From Dimargaris cristalligena (Eukaryota), in contig ML002252.1 of the NCBI GenBank assembly GCA_003614675.1, positions 1-57,147 on the forward strand: a DNA stretch of 57,147 bases. The letters are read 5' to 3'. This document shows, in pieces, positions 44,414-51,917 of this stretch. The position numbers and the translations under genes are program-made. The notes under the pieces are model-generated. The model had not been told where the DNA came from. It made no database searches and saw only the letters and a list, made by a program, of their open reading frames with translations. Positions within the stretch are counted from its first letter, which is position 1, and every line of letters starts with the position of its first letter.

Positions 44414-45366
44414 GATGCAATACGATACGCTACGCTACGATGGGATACGATGGGAATAGGCGCAGGTGTGGGTGGGGTAAAGGTTGAAAATAAAAAAATA
44501 AAATAGGAGGGAGTATAATAAGAAAGATGGAAAACTGAAAACAGGTTGTAGGGAAGGTGAAAAGAGTCTGGTGAATTGGCCCCCACAATTAAGCGAAAGG
44601 CTTGGGATAAGGTTAAGAGAGTGAATGGGAAGAAAGGAAATAAAGTGAGAGAGAGAGAAGGAAAAGAGAGAAGGTATGTTGGAGAGAAGCACACAATACA
44701 GGCGGTGTGTCTGGTCACTCTCTAAAGCAGAGACGGTGAGCAGGGTGTGTATGTACGATTGTACAAGTGAGGGAGAATAGACAAAGGCGTGTCTTGGGTT
44801 GGAATGCGATGTACCGTAATGGTATAAAGCAGTAGAAAAATATATAAAGGAGCCGGGCAAATGCAATGGAAGGAGGTGGGGGGAACTTTGGTTCTGGCTG
44901 GTTTTTTAGATACACCCCTCCCTCCTCCCCTCTCCCCCTCATATTGGGGTGACTCGGAGGGAAGGGGAGGCGTGGGGGAAAAAGGAGAGGGGGGTTAGGG
45001 GAAGGGGGACGTGGGGGCACGGGCCTGGCCGCTTGCAGCACAGAGATAGGTGGGCTTAGCAGCCAACGGAGGAAATAGCACTCTCTACTCTCTTATGGCT
45101 TATACTCTCTCTCTCTCTCTCCTATTGTAGCCACACATAATGCTAAGTTTGGTCTACCATACTGCGCCAGATGCCCCCACACAAGGGCAAATAAACATTC
45201 ATGTAACAAATTTATCTCTGGGCCTTATTATAATAGGTCAAAAAGGAGAATCCTAACTATAATACTATTATACTCGACAGCCGACTACGTAAGGGCTAGG
45301 CTGGGCGTCGCAGTAAGCCAGTCCCAGTGGATTTATCTGGTGATACCGTTGCCGTGATGGTCATCG

Positions 45367-45703
45367 TGTAACCGGGATGGCCGAGTAGGACCAAGCAACT
45401 GTAAAGAAATAACTATTCCGTCGAGTAGGACGAGGGATCAAAGAACAACTAGATAAGAATTATAAATTGGATAGATATTTATTTGAAAGATAAGGAACAA
45501 AGGGTTGGCCGCTCGGGGCGGTGTATTTTACTCCTCTGGGGTGAGGTATTGCTCTTGTGCTATTAGTGGGGAGGTATCCTCCTCTAACAAGGGGGTCGAG
45601 TTGACCACTGTATAGTTCCTTGGGTTTTCCTCACTTGGATGGGACGCACTGTGGGGGGGATCGGCCTCTCGCCTTTGGGTGGGGGAGGCCTCTCCTGGTT
45701 GCA
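45367..45703 (-). repeat. 3' LTR (337 bp)
   Basis: tgtaaccggg...cctggttgca, identical by eye to 50721-51057. Confidence 0.97.
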
Positions 45704-48700
45704 CAATACTCCAGGGTAATTTCTCATCCTCGGAGGTGGTGGTTTGTGATTCCTGAACTTCTCGGTCCAGCCTTTCCCGGAGGTGCGGGAGTGCGAGGAG
45801 GGTAGGGCTGGAGGACTCACATAGCCTTCGGCGAATTGTCTGCGATGCTTCGGTTTGCGGGGGAGATTGTGAAGCTTGTCTCTTAGAGCCTTGTGTATAC
45901 ACCTCTAAGGGTAGCTGCTCTAGGTCTTCATCTGATAGATACTCTGAGTCCGACTCGGATGTGAACCACTGGTACATCTCTTCTTCAGAGACATCATCTT
46001 CACTACTATATTCCACCCGTGAGTTATCGACTGGGGAGAGTGAACCTGTTAGCAGCATGCTTGTTCCATCTAATTCGATGTCTTGATCTCCCTGGATGTT
46101 ATTGCTCCAGTCTCCAGTGGTTCTGCCGCTCCTATCTTCGATGGTTTCGCTATTCCTGTTCTCAATAGTTTCATTGTTCCTGTCCCTGTGGTTTCTTTCC
46201 TCGGTGGTGCTATTCCCTCCCTCTCCATCACTGGTGGTCCAAACAGTTGGCCCTATTCTAATTGACGTAGCCTCTGTTTCTCCTAATAGAATATCCCCGT
46301 CATCATTACTTACATAATACGGGAGGAGGAGATCACCATGAACATTTCGGGGTCGGGGGTTTCCATCAAGGTCAGTTAATCGGTAGGATAGGCCTGCCCT
46401 CTCTAGGACTCGGAATGGCCCTATCCTTCGCTCTGGCTGGCTAGCTAGATTGGCTGGTTTTGGTAAAACTTTGACTGTGACTAGTTCACCTGGGAGGTAT
46501 TGTTTCCTGGTTACATGTTGGTTGTATCGCTCCATTGCCTGCTTTCGAACTCGGGTGCGCCTCTCCTTGGCCTGGCTAATTGCCCAACGTGCAGCCTCTT
46601 CTGGCCCTGCCTCGGTATCTGGGTGAAGTAATAACTGGGACATATCCACGGTAGATTCAATGCCCTTGAGTGCCATCCATGGTGAGATACCAGTCTGCGG
46701 GTCAGGGATGATTGCATGGGCAGCCGTAATTCGAGGGAGGTATTGGATCCATCCGTCTGTAGTACCATACTGGCTCAAACATTTTCTCAGTGAGTTTTTG
46801 AGTAGCCCCACATACCGTTCGGCCAGTTCCGAGATGGGATGGCTGCGGGATGAGAATATATGTCGAATTCCTTGATCCACTAAGTAGGTTTTTAGGGTGT
46901 CAGCTGTAAACTGCGGCCCATTATCGGTGGTAATTATACGAGGCTTCCCAAAGGTACCTATCCACCCATCACGTAAGCTCTCCACTATATCTGATGCTGT
47001 GGATTGTAGGAGTGGTATTGCCTGGTAAAATCGGCTAGCTGCATCAGCAATAATGAGGAATTGAGTCTCCTCATCTGTGCCAATTTGACCGATATGACCT
47101 ATATCCAAATAGAGATGTTCTCCTGGTTTCCGGTCTCCATAGGTGGTGGACCGAGGGGTGTTGCGAATTGTGGCAATGGCATTAATCTGGCAGACGTGAC
47201 ATGTTTTGGTCAATTGGTCAATAGTCTCCCGTAGAGCAGGGTGTGATAACCGGGATTGGGTAAAGGCTAGAAGTCGCTCTTGGCCTGGGTGACAGAGTTC
47301 CTCATGCCACCGCTTAATGGCCTCCTTCATCATAGGAGTGGGGGCCAGTGGCACCCAGCTACCCATTGTGCCTGGTAGAGTACTGGGGACTAGTTTACAG
47401 AGTAGTCCGCCCTGGATGGACATTCCATCTACCTCGGTAAACAGGGGATCCTCTTTACCAATCTCACTTTCCCTCCTGAGGCATAGGCGATACCATGCTT
47501 CCAACTGGGTGTTACTCCTTTGATCCTCCATGGTGATAGACCATCGCCAGGAGTTTGGGAGGGCAGCCCTAACCATAGATTCACCAGTGAGTCTGGAGGA
47601 ATCTAGGTCTGGCCCGTAATCCTCCTCCTCATCAGAGGTTAAGGAGATGTCTACTGCCTCCCCCTCATCGCTACTAATAGTAAATTCCCCGGGGGTGATT
47701 CCTATAGCAGCAATGGTTATAGCCTTGGGTTTAGTGGGCTTACGTGGTCTCTGGCGTTGGAGGGCGCGTGATAACCAGTCAGCGGTTAAATGTGATTCAC
47801 CTGGCCGATGATAAATCATATGTGAGTGGATCCCCATTTTTGACAGCTCCACCCGGAACCCGGCTAGTTCATCTGCTTGGCAGGTGTCTTTATGGTTGAA
47901 TAGACCCAGTGCCGTAGTGGCATCTACTTCAATTCGGAGGTTAGTAGCACCATCCAAATAAGTGTAAAAGTGACGGACTGCCCGAACCAGTCCCCAGGCC
48001 TCCCGAAATCCAGGATGTCTTCTTCCCTGTTGGCCATCAAAGGCTTTGCTGAAGTAAGCAACTACCCGATCTTCCTGATTATCAGTATGAGCCAGCAGTA
48101 CTGCTCCTACTCCGGCTTCTGCTGCATCTACCCTTAGGGTAAGGGGATCACCGGGCCGTGGCTCATATAGATGTTTGGTATCCAGAAGGGCTTCTTTCAG
48201 TCCTTCCCAGTGAGGCTGGAGTTCGATCAGATGTGTCTTAGATAATCGGTGGAGTCCAGTGAGGGCATAGAAGGGTGCTAGTAATGCCGCAGCCCATGGT
48301 AGGTGGGCAGAGATAGCATTGATGCCACCTGTTAGTCGCTGAATCTCTTTGACAGTCCGTGGCATGGGCAGTTGTTGAAGGTCAGCGATTCGGTGGTCTG
48401 GGATTGTCCAGGTACTCCCCTGGGACCAGCGGTAGCCAAGGATCTCTACATTTTGTGTACCTGCAAACTCACTCTTAGGCATATTAATTGTAAGACCCCA
48501 TGAGGCTAAGCCTCGAATAAGTTTACCAATATCTTGAATGTGTTTCCCAATGTCCCCATCAATACTCTTTAGGTAAATATTATCAATATAACCTAAGAGG
48601 AGGCCATGTAGGTCTGGCATACTGTTAAAGACATGCATAAGAAGTGCGTGGGCGATTGCAGGACTTTGGCTATTACCCTGAACCAAACGGGTAGCCCGAA

Positions 48701-49817
48701 CTCGGCCATTAGATCCACCATCAAAGGTCCAGAAGTCTCGAACTTTAGTTGCTAGCCTAATCTGGGTGAAATAGGAAGCAAGATCGATGCTAGTAATAAC
48801 TTTTGCATTATTTACAAAGGATCGGACTTCATGGAGCTTGGGGAGCTGCATTCCTAGGGAATGCATATTAACTGTGCTCCCCTGGCTATCATCCAGGATA
48901 ACTCTCCGGGCATCAGTATTAGGCTTTGGTAAGCTGTAAACCGGCAGGTTGGCATGAGCAAAACCTGGCTCATCTACTCCATATTGGAGGCGAGTCTTGA
49001 TATATCCATCCATGAATTCACGATCTGCTTGACTCCTTGGGGCTTGAGGGATATACAGGAGTTTAGCATCAGGTTTCAATGGAGGTGTGACTGGTTTGAG
49101 CAGACAAGGTGGGGGGCAGCTTGGTGGGTATTCTCGAAGGGATTGGGTCCCTGTCATGAGTTCATCCACAAGCTGGTTTCGGGTTTGGGAGCAGGGTAGC
49201 TGTTCCTTTAGCCTAGACTTAATATTCTCCCTGGTAGTGGGAGGGTATTGGTCATTAGCTTGTCGGTATTCCTGGTCCATGGCTGGGTTTATTCTACTAA
49301 AGGTATGTGCGGGTAGCCCCCTTGGCTCTAGGGTTTTCCTCTGGGTAACCTTAGGTGGTACTGGAGAGTCAGATGTGGTAACCTCAAGGGGGCTCACCTT
49401 TAGACTGGGTGGTGGTCGTAGATCAAGGTCAAGGCCATCTAGATCATAGCGGCCAACTAGTAAGTCAATATCAGAATTTACTTCAATGACTGTCAGTTTA
49501 ACCCAGCGTTTTTTGGGGGATTCCGCTGTTGAGAACCGTGCCCGAGTGACACCTAAGGTTGGGGCATAGTTGTACCCACCAAATGCCCGCAGATGGGGTC
49601 TTATATATGGGTTAATTTTGAGGTGGAGACGGGTGGCTGCTTCTCGTGTGATAATGCTAGTGGCAGCACCTTGATCTGCTGCTGCCTTGACTGGGATTCC
49701 TCCCAGAGCTGCGTCCTGCAATAGTCTCCAATGGGGTAGGCTGTCTTCGGTGGTAAAGGAATGAATACTAGGTTTATTGGAAGTAATGGCCGCTAGTATT
49801 ATGGGGGTCTCTACCAC
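45528..49817 (-). CDS. pol: Retrotransposon Pol (protease, RT, RNase H, integrase), probably made as Gag-Pol by -1 frameshift
   Basis: PR: ADQGA. RT: SIDLASYF, LVQG, YIDN. RNase H: VDAAEAGVGAVL, REAWG, ADWLSR. IN: H-x4-H...CHVC, LDI, TDNGPQF, AERY, GPF. The ORF has no ATG at its 5' end. Confidence 0.95.
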   Translation of the reverse strand: MVETPIILAAITSNKPSIHSFTTEDSLPHWRLLQDAALGGIPVKAAADQGAATSIITREAATRLHLKINPYIRPHLRAFGGYNYAPTLGVTRARFSTAESPKKRWVKLTVIEVNSDIDLLVGRYDLDGLDLDLRPPPSLKVSPLEVTTSDSPVPPKVTQRKTLEPRGLPAHTFSRINPAMDQEYRQANDQYPPTTRENIKSRLKEQLPCSQTRNQLVDELMTGTQSLREYPPSCPPPCLLKPVTPPLKPDAKLLYIPQAPRSQADREFMDGYIKTRLQYGVDEPGFAHANLPVYSLPKPNTDARRVILDDSQGSTVNMHSLGMQLPKLHEVRSFVNNAKVITSIDLASYFTQIRLATKVRDFWTFDGGSNGRVRATRLVQGNSQSPAIAHALLMHVFNSMPDLHGLLLGYIDNIYLKSIDGDIGKHIQDIGKLIRGLASWGLTINMPKSEFAGTQNVEILGYRWSQGSTWTIPDHRIADLQQLPMPRTVKEIQRLTGGINAISAHLPWAAALLAPFYALTGLHRLSKTHLIELQPHWEGLKEALLDTKHLYEPRPGDPLTLRVDAAEAGVGAVLLAHTDNQEDRVVAYFSKAFDGQQGRRHPGFREAWGLVRAVRHFYTYLDGATNLRIEVDATTALGLFNHKDTCQADELAGFRVELSKMGIHSHMIYHRPGESHLTADWLSRALQRQRPRKPTKPKAITIAAIGITPGEFTISSDEGEAVDISLTSDEEEDYGPDLDSSRLTGESMVRAALPNSWRWSITMEDQRSNTQLEAWYRLCLRRESEIGKEDPLFTEVDGMSIQGGLLCKLVPSTLPGTMGSWVPLAPTPMMKEAIKRWHEELCHPGQERLLAFTQSRLSHPALRETIDQLTKTCHVCQINAIATIRNTPRSTTYGDRKPGEHLYLDIGHIGQIGTDEETQFLIIADAASRFYQAIPLLQSTASDIVESLRDGWIGTFGKPRIITTDNGPQFTADTLKTYLVDQGIRHIFSSRSHPISELAERYVGLLKNSLRKCLSQYGTTDGWIQYLPRITAAHAIIPDPQTGISPWMALKGIESTVDMSQLLLHPDTEAGPEEAARWAISQAKERRTRVRKQAMERYNQHVTRKQYLPGELVTVKVLPKPANLASQPERRIGPFRVLERAGLSYRLTDLDGNPRPRNVHGDLLLPYYVSNDDGDILLGETEATSIRIGPTVWTTSDGEGGNSTTEERNHRDRNNETIENRNSETIEDRSGRTTGDWSNNIQGDQDIELDGTSMLLTGSLSPVDNSRVEYSSEDDVSEEEMYQWFTSESDSEYLSDEDLEQLPLEVYTQGSKRQASQSPPQTEASQTIRRRLCESSSPTLLALPHLRERLDREVQESQTTTSEDEKLPWSIVQPGEASPTQRREADPPHSASHPSEENPRNYTVVNSTPLLEEDTSPLIAQEQYLTPEE

Positions 49818-49819
49818 CT

Positions 49820-50692
49820 CTAGGCTTTTCCCGGCTTGTTGTTCATTGCCAGCTGAAGCCTGGTGTTTTCGGCCCGCAATTCAGCCATTTCCTTGGCCTG
49901 GCGATCCCTACGACGACGGTTCCTGCCTTTGCCCTCTGAGTTAGTAGTTGGGGTTCCTCCTTTCATAGCTGCAAGGACTGCTGCCACGATGGACTCGGTA
50001 GAAGGGGGGCTGGGGTCCCTAGTGCCTTGTAGTGGTAATTCCCGGACTCCTTGGGATAGTGGACCACGTCCTGGTGCTGTTCTAAGGGCAGCCTGGCGGC
50101 CTTGGTAAGCTAGTACTGCTTGAGTGATGTTCTTGAACCGTTCAGCCATAGTTCCCGCTGTGTATTCCTCAAAGTTCCAGAGTTCGTTTGGGGCCTGTTC
50201 GAGGTTTGGGTGGAATTCAGCAAGTAGGGCCTTTGTGACCTGGATGCACCAGTGGCTAGTACCCCCCAGCTGCCAGGCGGCATCGTTGGCTATGGTGCAT
50301 GCTACATGGATGTTCTTCCCCTTAAAGAGGGTTCCCGAGTGTAGGGCAGTATCATAATACTCTGCCCACAGTGAGGCTGGGTAGGTAGCCTTCATAAAGG
50401 CCTCGAAGTGTTCAGTAGTATCCTTGCTGGCCTTGATTACTAAGTCGCGGATATCGTCCTGCAAGAGTGCAATGGTCAGACGGAACTGGGCTCCCGGGGC
50501 CATCTGGGGGTAGTAGTCCCGGGTGGTAGCAGTAAGTGATAGCTTCCAAGAGTCCCAAGTGGGTCCGGGAGGTTTGCCTGTAAAGGGTTTTACATTCTTT
50601 AGCAGGGTGTCAAGTGCACCGGAGGGGAGTCCAAGTTGGGGGACAAAGGGAGGGTCACTGATCTGTTGCGGGGTGGGAGTATTGGAGGACAT
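49820..50692 (-). CDS. gag: Retrotransposon Gag (290 aa, basic C-terminus, no CCHC knuckle)
   Basis: ORF lies between the 5' LTR and pol. It has a KPFTG...W capsid-like start and the basic patch RNRRRRDR. Confidence 0.85.
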   Translation of the reverse strand: MSSNTPTPQQISDPPFVPQLGLPSGALDTLLKNVKPFTGKPPGPTWDSWKLSLTATTRDYYPQMAPGAQFRLTIALLQDDIRDLVIKASKDTTEHFEAFMKATYPASLWAEYYDTALHSGTLFKGKNIHVACTIANDAAWQLGGTSHWCIQVTKALLAEFHPNLEQAPNELWNFEEYTAGTMAERFKNITQAVLAYQGRQAALRTAPGRGPLSQGVRELPLQGTRDPSPPSTESIVAAVLAAMKGGTPTTNSEGKGRNRRRRDRQAKEMAELRAENTRLQLAMNNKPGKA

Positions 50693-50720
50693 AGTTTTAT
50701 AGATCTTTCAAATAAAAGTT

Positions 50721-51057
50721 TGTAACCGGGATGGCCGAGTAGGACCAAGCAACTGTAAAGAAATAACTATTCCGTCGAGTAGGACGAGGGATCAAAGAAC
50801 AACTAGATAAGAATTATAAATTGGATAGATATTTATTTGAAAGATAAGGAACAAAGGGTTGGCCGCTCGGGGCGGTGTATTTTACTCCTCTGGGGTGAGG
50901 TATTGCTCTTGTGCTATTAGTGGGGAGGTATCCTCCTCTAACAAGGGGGTCGAGTTGACCACTGTATAGTTCCTTGGGTTTTCCTCACTTGGATGGGACG
51001 CACTGTGGGGGGGATCGGCCTCTCGCCTTTGGGTGGGGGAGGCCTCTCCTGGTTGCA
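50721..51057 (-). repeat. 5' LTR (337 bp)
   Basis: Direct repeat of 45367-45703. Confidence 0.97.
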
Positions 51058-51917
51058 ATCGGGTGGCCTATGAGAAACAATGGCCTTGAAAGAGGATACC
51101 AGACAGACTATGTCCCGGTCGTTATGAGGTAGAGGGGGGGGGGTTCCTTAGTATTTGCCCCATTTTGAGCCCAAAACTAGCGCCAGCTTGATTCAAATCC
51201 GATCTAGTTGGTAAAATATTGGCATTTGATTTTTGATCTACAGGATTGGGACTAAGCTACATCTACCCACCTCCGCAACTAGTAGTCGCCTTAGCTTCAA
51301 ATAGTATTCAACCGACAGGTCTGTGGCAGTGGATTCGAAACTGCAGGAGATCCCTTCGGCCGATATCAGCCTCCCTCTTCCCAAGGCAAAACCTTATTGT
51401 AGCACAGTCTCAGAAAGGAGCAGTAAAACGCAGTGTATTTTTCGTTCATTTTCAAGGAGGAAAGCTACACTAGTAGAGAGTAGGCATGTCATTTAAATGT
51501 TCCAAACTCGTAAAAGGTGCCAATAATGAAAGGATTCAGATAAGAAATACATAAAAATAGGAGTGGCATGAAAAAATCGGCGGAGAAAGGGAGGAAGCAC
51601 ATGGCAGGAACACTAAAAATACGAAAGGACACGAAAAATGGCATATGGTAGGAGAGGAAAAGGGCGCGCGAGTGGTAGACGAGGGAAGAGAGAGAAAGTG
51701 GAGGTGATGCGGCATCTGAGCTCCGCGAAATGGTCAGGAGAAATGCCCTGATCTAAAAGATACGGTAATACGGTTTCAAATGACAAGAATGGGCAAATGA
51801 TGGAAGAGCAATAATGGGTATTAAATGAGCGAGTAGTGGGGGGGGGGACGTGAGGGGTATATATTGGGGGGAGCCACCCTCATAAGCGGCTCTTTGTCGC
51901 CCCCCTCCTTTGTTCAT

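Follow-up and report, generated by a model that had tools for sequence, protein, structure and literature searches.

How does an LTR retrotransposon start its first DNA strand when no tRNA-type PBS follows the 5' LTR? This question is raised by an element on contig ML002252.1 of Dimargaris cristalligena (GenBank assembly GCA_003614675.1). The whole stretch analysed, positions 1 to 57,147 of the forward strand, is called the window here and all coordinates refer to it. A preliminary description, made from the DNA letters, had proposed that this element is primed by its own RNA and that it may define an undescribed lineage. We examined both proposals using the element itself, its copies and variants in the same genome and its relatives elsewhere.

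An intact Ty3/gypsy-type element

The minus strand of the window carries an intact LTR retrotransposon of the Ty3/gypsy type, 5691 bp long. No other LTR element was found in the 57 kb. The two LTRs (51057-50721 and 45703-45367) have TG...CA ends and do not differ at any of their 337 positions; the repeat tool returned 300 nt for them, the true length is 337 nt. LTRs ending in TG...CA, a short TSD and the pol order PR-RT-RNase H-IN are those of Ty3/gypsy (Metaviridae) elements. The features are, in the direction of the element:

51058..51061, minus strand: TSD CGAT on the 5' side, the same 4 nt being present at 45363-45366
50721..51057, minus strand: 5' LTR, 337 nt, TG...CA, identical to the 3' LTR
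50846..51057, minus strand: predicted U3, 212 nt, delimited by the position of the putative self-primer
50878..50884, minus strand: TATA-like TAAAATA, a presumed promoter motif; in the 3' LTR its TAA serves as the stop codon of pol
50832..50845, minus strand: putative self-primer ATCTTTCAAATAAA, predicted first 14 nt of the transcript (start of R)
50837-50832, minus strand: AATAAA, inside the putative self-primer
50721..50831, minus strand: predicted remainder of R, and U5
50717..50720, minus strand: AACT spacer, 4 nt, between the LTR end (CA) and the PBS
50703..50716, minus strand: putative PBS TTTATTTGAAAGAT, perfect complement of 50845-50832
50693..50702, minus strand: CTATAAAACT spacer, 10 nt, precedes the gag ATG
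49820..50692, minus strand: gag ORF, 290 aa, no Pfam family
49826..49832, minus strand: slippery heptamer G GGA AAA, read in the frame of gag; candidate site of a -1 shift into pol
45528..49817, minus strand: pol ORF with protease (DQG), RT (motif C YIDN), RNase H, integrase and a tail of about 330 aa
45720..45731, minus strand: purine-rich tract closest to the 3' LTR, GAGGATGAGAAA, 16 nt before the LTR
45367..45703, minus strand: 3' LTR
45363..45366, minus strand: TSD CGAT on the 3' side

The gag product (290 aa) did not match any Pfam family. In the 1429 aa of pol, RVT_1, RT_RNaseH_2, Integrase_H2C2 and rve were recognized by Pfam; the match to an aspartyl protease was weak. The closest PDB structures are those of Ty3, 7q5b for RT-RNase H (E 1e-28) and 4ol8 for integrase (E 6e-21), and acidic residues which align with those of Ty3 RNase H are retained. 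Chromo and SH3_Tf2-1 did not match pol at E <=0.01, nor were they detected in its last 390 aa at E <=10. Downstream of a GPF/Y-like segment of the integrase, pol continues for about 330 aa (45528-46520), which are acidic, rich in Ser/Thr and not assigned to a Pfam family. This C-terminal tail may be a targeting or a disordered domain.

Relative to gag, pol is open at -1. Directly before the gag stop lies the heptamer G GGA AAA, which has the canonical slippery form; a slip at this site continues into ...GKSLEVVETP... of pol. A -1 frameshift from gag to pol at the heptamer is plausible. At its other end the pol frame extends 173 nt into the 3' LTR, i.e. the first 173 nt of U3 are the end of pol. 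Because the pol stop TAA belongs to the TATA-like TAAAATA, U3 is coding and promoter sequence at once. No polypurine tract adjoins the 3' LTR; the adjacent 16 nt, TTACCCTGGAGTATTG, are not purine-rich.

Motif C of the RT reads YIDN (window about 48591-48580, minus strand) and aligns to YLDD of Ty3, i.e. the second catalytic Asp is replaced by Asn. YIDN is also present in two Coemansia proteins and in a metagenome contig, L001 (about 2260-2275), and the metagenome sister clade described below has YVDN. Among the 99 stored proteins which could be aligned over the motif, many of them near-duplicates, 39 have xxDN. On either of the two trees below this label requires three changes, and it occurs in three separate clades. 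A limited literature search found no paper linking YIDN to a reverse transcriptase. YxDN instead of the catalytic YxDD is a separate point of interest for retroelement enzymologists. The active-site triplet of the protease (window about 49700-49690, minus strand) is DQG here, DNG in L001 and DTG in the Coemansia consensus; its T/S position is variable in the lineage.

In its anatomy of the element the preliminary description was accurate. The 4-bp TSD it had claimed is CGAT on both flanks (51058-51061 and 45363-45366), YIDN and DQG are both present in pol, and the lack of a clear PPT was borne out in that no purine tract touches the 3' LTR. Its statement that a chromodomain is absent holds even when the last 390 aa of pol are searched at E <=10, and the -1 frameshift it had read is plausible at 49832-49826.

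Contigs from four DNA runs (X1-X4) of one organism were aligned to 44800-51600 at 80% likeness. All four runs contained exact copies of the internal region, without a single difference (e.g. records 6, 12, 17/18 and 23). The contigs end about 29 nt inside the LTR, and LTR starts are joined to other flanks too (loose ends 51057 and 51059). Because of the exact copies in four runs, the contig breaks in the LTR and the LTRs at other flanks we consider the family to be multi-copy and young. The element itself is a young LTR retrotransposon of the Ty3/gypsy type and probably active. Its RT with YIDN is presumably functional because the element looks recently active. Given the identical LTRs, the TSD, the open gag and pol, the exact copies and the LTRs at other flanks, the element must possess a working primer site.

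The LTR-leader complement and its possible use as a primer

On the element strand, the 5' LTR ends in ...GGTTACA (end at 50721) and is followed by AACT, TTTATTTGAAAGAT, CTATAAAACT and the ATG of gag (50692), which is 28 nt from the LTR end. The 28-nt leader does not contain a TGG, so priming by the 3' end of a tRNA is excluded, and its length leaves no space for a second PBS. The stretch TTTATTTGAAAGAT (50716-50703), offset by 4 nt from the 5' LTR, is 100% complementary to ATCTTTCAAATAAA within the LTR (50845-50832). In an inverted-repeat search 115 nt separated the two 14-nt arms. No other long inverted repeat was reported for the LTR plus leader; the one further pair is a 10-nt palindrome in U3. 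The 14-nt pair cannot be extended, with T-C and T-T mismatches at its ends. The partner in the LTR starts 33 nt past the last base of TAAAATA (50884-50878), begins with an A after a T and contains AATAAA. Transcription typically starts at about such a distance from a TATA box. Judged by these properties, the partner would fit the start of an R region. A scan for bacterial-type promoters and terminators was set aside as irrelevant to a eukaryotic element. Re-reading of the sequence confirmed what had been claimed for this region, i.e. the layout of the leader, the 28-nt distance to the ATG, the absence of a TGG-starting tRNA PBS, the perfect 14-mer complement, the TATA-like TAAAATA about 33 nt before the partner and the AATAAA inside it.

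Both arms are AT-rich (23 of the 28 leader nucleotides are A or T), and a complement in AT-rich sequence may be due to chance. In 20000 dinucleotide shuffles, in which the leader was fixed and the LTR shuffled, a 14-nt complement never appeared; the longest had 13 nt. Shuffling the AT-rich 140-nt part of the LTR alone had the same outcome, without a 14-nt complement. In the 57-kb window the 14-mer is present three times, in both LTRs and as the complement at the PBS, against an expectation of 0.03 (<=1 mismatch); three matches occurred in none of 100 shuffles. These counts make chance an exceedingly improbable explanation. The 14-nt complementarity is real. A published self-primer signature is a stretch of at least 10 bp which begins 0-5 bp behind the 5' LTR and is complementary to it; as stated in PMC6317226, 12% of the plant elements surveyed had it. 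The element displays this signature with 14 perfect nucleotides at an offset of 4 nt. Complements of at least 10 nt starting no more than 5 nt from the LTR end arose in 45 of the 20000 dinucleotide shuffles.

According to PMC7175516 the first 11 nt of Tf1 RNA anneal to the PBS, and cleavage by RNase H falls between nt 11 and 12. The Tf1 start site is described as the 5' end of the self-primer, and Tf1 is reported to require a 'pretzel' of three duplexes, in which the sequences next to the PBS are bound by LTR sequence from beyond the primer (10.1101/2022.12.06.519325). For the element studied here, self-priming of the Tf1 type, by its own RNA instead of a tRNA, appears to be the best explanation and we regard it as moderately probable. 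The RNA would begin at 50845 or close to it, 33-39 nt downstream of the TATA-like motif. Its nucleotides 1-14 would loop back across roughly 115 nt of R-U5 and anneal to the PBS, which lies 4 nt beyond the LTR. The RNase H of the element would then cleave this RNA on the 3' side of nt 14, between 50832 and 50831, and the resulting 14-nt RNA primer would be extended by RT through the spacer, U5 and the remaining R. The strong-stop DNA of about 115 nt would be transferred to the 3' R. What we infer from the sequence is that the duplex serves as a primer, where transcription starts, where RNase H cuts and where R ends.

When the RNA was folded from 50845, nt 1-14 were paired with the PBS in the minimum-energy and in the centroid structure. 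Pair probabilities were 0.68-1.0 for RNAs starting at 50845, 50855, 50865 or 50875. The isolated 14-bp duplex has a predicted energy of -12.9 kcal/mol. The stability of the whole RNA fold was unremarkable (z = -1.84; 9 of 200 shuffles folded equally well). A comparison with 1000 shuffles gave no support to the flanking duplexes of the Tf1 'pretzel', taken as the most stable pairing between R-U5 and the sequence on either side of the PBS. The duplex of R-U5 with the 24 nt before the PBS was equalled or beaten in 678 shuffles, that with the 28 nt after the PBS in 172.

Self-priming may also take a form other than that of Tf1. The same 14 nt would be used, yet the RNA would start upstream of 50845 or act in trans from a second packaged RNA, and a Tf1-like folded structure would not be formed. 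This agrees with the failure to support the flanking duplexes of Tf1 and with a pairing that is independent of the exact RNA start. However, the complementarity ends exactly at 50845, as it would if the PBS were copied anew from a primer that shares its 5' end with the RNA. The re-copying of the PBS from the primer reportedly goes back to work by Atwood-Moore from 2006. We assign a low probability to such a deviating form. A different possibility is that the PBS binds a host RNA, e.g. an internal tRNA fragment as in copia/Ty5-type elements or another small RNA, and that the match with the LTR is secondary. Priming by half-tRNAs and by internal tRNA sequence is known in LTR elements, as reported in PMC6317226. 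Against it, just 2 of the 14 nt in the PBS complement are G/C and, by eye, this complement could not be placed on the anticodon or T arm of a tRNA because the would-be stem bases do not pair. In addition, an LTR match that was seen in 0 of 20000 shuffles would be left unexplained. Judged by these features a primer from the host is quite unlikely. No tRNA genes were found in the 57-kb window.

Finally, the 14-bp pairing may constitute a regulatory RNA stem and not a primer, with priming carried out by another RNA. The leader would hide the 5' AAUAAA, thus suppressing polyadenylation in the 5' R and allowing it in the 3' R. As no PBS follows the 3' LTR, such a stem is restricted to the 5' end. 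Alternatively, it might serve packaging or translation control. In agreement with a regulatory stem, the AATAAA lies wholly within the paired 14-mer, pairing is of high probability even with transcription starting 10-30 nt upstream of 50845, and the motif retained in a diverged LTR (see below) likewise ends in AATAAA. Yet the element, with a 28-nt leader free of TGG, would then be devoid of a candidate primer site, and the complement sits exactly at the position of a PBS. Furthermore, fungal poly(A) signals are loose and masking of AAUAAA is perhaps unnecessary. We consider it unlikely that a regulatory stem takes the place of a primer; as an additional role it could coexist with self-priming.

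Variants in the same genome and relatives elsewhere

The four runs also contained diverged copies. What is said of these variants draws on 40 of the 1262 differences and 24 of the 137 loose ends. One diverged LTR, present in X1 and also in X4, there at the corresponding place of the 3' LTR, matches U3 up to 50864 and continues with 17 nt which could not be aligned. It then reads GTCTTTCAATAAA where the element, after 18 nt, reads ATCTTTCAAATAAA (loose ends 50864 and 45510). The motif is kept while its surroundings diverge, and this points to selection on the motif. At primer nt 1 the diverged LTR has a G. A variant leader in X4 is unchanged in the LTR end, AACT and TTTATTT and continues with AGAAGAC in place of the GAAAGAT of the element. 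It carries a C at PBS nt 14, the position at which the element forms an A:T pair with primer nt 1. The G at primer nt 1 and the C at PBS nt 14, seen on two unlinked pieces, could be a covariation. If the diverged LTR and the variant leader belong to one element, their pairing would, by eye, be reduced to 6 + 6 bp with a small internal loop in between.

An LTR variant of 230 nt in X1, with its PBS out of view, shows A to C at primer nt 8 (50838). One of 14 nucleotides is changed in the 14-mer versus at least 11 of 111 in the adjacent R-U5. Conservation of the 14-mer in this variant does not exceed that of the flanking sequence, which counts against self-priming. In an LTR variant of X3 the TATA-like motif is changed to TAAACTA. 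Several diverged relatives are present in the same genome, about 80-87% alike in parts of gag, pol and LTR (45696-50700). They form a small swarm of families, suited to a study of covariation. Taken together, the self-priming proposed at the outset retains the support of the complementarity, its position and the lack of a TGG; the three-duplex structure of Tf1 was not supported and the comparative evidence is mixed.

Relatives outside of the window were searched for at the protein level. Among the 100 matches listed in a word-indexed protein search, three Coemansia proteins were 40-50% identical and the other 97 were 21-31% identical. An exhaustive search gave 30191 representatives at E <=0.001 and 415 at E <=1e-30, the best being 76% identical. 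The named proteins are from Dimargaris cristalligena (P0101), Coemansia species (P0102, P0109 and P0113) and Ramicandelaber brevisporus (P0111). P0105 and P0106 are from metagenome contigs and about 30% identical.

A first tree (FastTree) had 155 rows, i.e. the element and 154 RT-to-integrase proteins from 266 stored matches. The element was in a fully supported clade with P0105, P0106, P0143, P0251 and P0252. A second tree, a quick IQ-TREE run with 46 hand-picked rows, recovered the clade of the element with P0105, P0106 and P0143 (support 100) and placed a chromodomain-bearing clade (P0036, P0096, P0031, P0049 and P0074) elsewhere (support 100); deep-node support was as low as 9. Tree rows were labelled by Pfam content, with no named rows for Tf1, sushi, Maggy or Ty3. 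From its Pfam content, we take P0031 to be sushi-like. Chromo and SH3_Tf2-1 were not found in the sister proteins P0105, P0106 and P0143. Because it forms a separate clade in both trees, the element is Ty3/gypsy but outside of the sampled chromovirus group. Judged by these searches and trees it belongs to a deep, chromodomain-less YxDN clade, whose named members are from Kickxellomycotina fungi and whose sister group is in metagenomes. What remains of the 'undescribed lineage' is a well-supported, deep clade without chromodomain, in a tree whose rows are labelled by Pfam content.

The metagenome contig L001 is 53% identical in RT and carries an in-frame stop there. It covers no more than 163 nt ahead of gag and lacks a second LTR. 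In its AT-rich leader 19 weak inverted pairs were recorded over 220 nt, and a convincing complement was absent within the 163 nt before gag. L001 appears to be from a different, AT-rich host because it is very AT-rich with N/K-rich proteins. At the 5' end of this contig (1-2854) a 24-nt tandem repeat is located. At about 97-115 it reads CA, GAT and then TTTATTT..., which resembles the layout of LTR end and PBS seen here and could be chance. A profile search with alignment A1 of genome_contigs and viral_contigs yielded no relative, and neither alignment A2 nor P0252 found anything in viral_contigs. With P0252 the single match outside of viral_contigs, in a bacterial MAG (L002), was spurious and covered 17 residues only.

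Comparison with known and predicted self-primers and Ty3

Self-priming as such is an established mechanism and has already been predicted in several lineages; what is new here is a lineage in which it had not been noted before. To our knowledge, experimental proof exists only for Tf1; elsewhere it is predicted, mostly for Tf1 relatives and for one copia lineage. A limited literature search found no paper which connects self-priming with elements of Zoopagomycota. The element presents a clean signature in early-diverging fungi and in a chromodomain-less Ty3/gypsy clade unrelated to Tf1. Such a signature would suggest that tRNA-independent priming arose more than once or predates the chromoviruses. 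It would also provide a second, structurally simpler system for the requirements of RT/RNase H in cutting an RNA duplex and priming from it. Because it looks recently active, the prediction is directly testable.

Tentatively, and with considerable doubt, one may go further. The deep chromodomain-less YxDN clade might self-prime independently of Tf1/sushi and in a simpler manner, with a single 14-bp duplex, no pretzel and a poly(A) signal within the primer, such that one fold-back would accomplish priming and masking of the 5' AAUAAA. Together with the absence of a PPT at the 3' LTR, the priming steps of both strands would then deviate from the textbook scheme.

Like the element, Tf1/Tf2 of Schizosaccharomyces pombe, Tj1, Tosmo1-3 and Tcry1 have no tRNA-type PBS according to the sources cited here, and for Tj1, whose transposition as a marked element was assayed by expression in S. 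pombe, self-priming has been proposed (PMC4600332). With the Tf1/sushi group, as portrayed in these sources, the element shares a post-LTR sequence complementary to the predicted 5' end of its own RNA, downstream of a TATA box; both are of the Ty3/gypsy type with the order PR-RT-RH-IN. The complement has 14 nt in the element and 11 in Tf1, and the two additional 'pretzel' duplexes of Tf1 are not supported in the element. In contrast to Tf1/sushi, the element is devoid of a chromodomain and of an SH3_Tf2-1 match, links gag and pol by a candidate -1 frameshift and not by a single ORF or an in-frame stop, has no PPT next to the 3' LTR and carries YIDN as RT motif C. In trees without named Tf1 or sushi rows it is located outside of the chromodomain clade.

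Self-priming is further predicted for the Tcn1 clade of fungi and non-seed plants and for the TAR lineage of copia elements (Houba, Osr-1), as given in PMC6317226. Because these two groups have the same signature, predicted self-priming is, following this source, not confined to Tf1/sushi. The element has the same kind of signature as they do (at least 10 bp, 0-5 bp after the 5' LTR; PMC6317226). Tcn1 elements are chromoviruses related to Tf1/sushi and TAR is Ty1/copia, whereas the element is part of a chromodomain-less Ty3/gypsy clade. Ty3 of Saccharomyces cerevisiae is like the element in domain order and provides its closest structures, 7q5b and 4ol8. It differs by YLDD in place of YIDN. 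Ty3 uses a tRNA primer.
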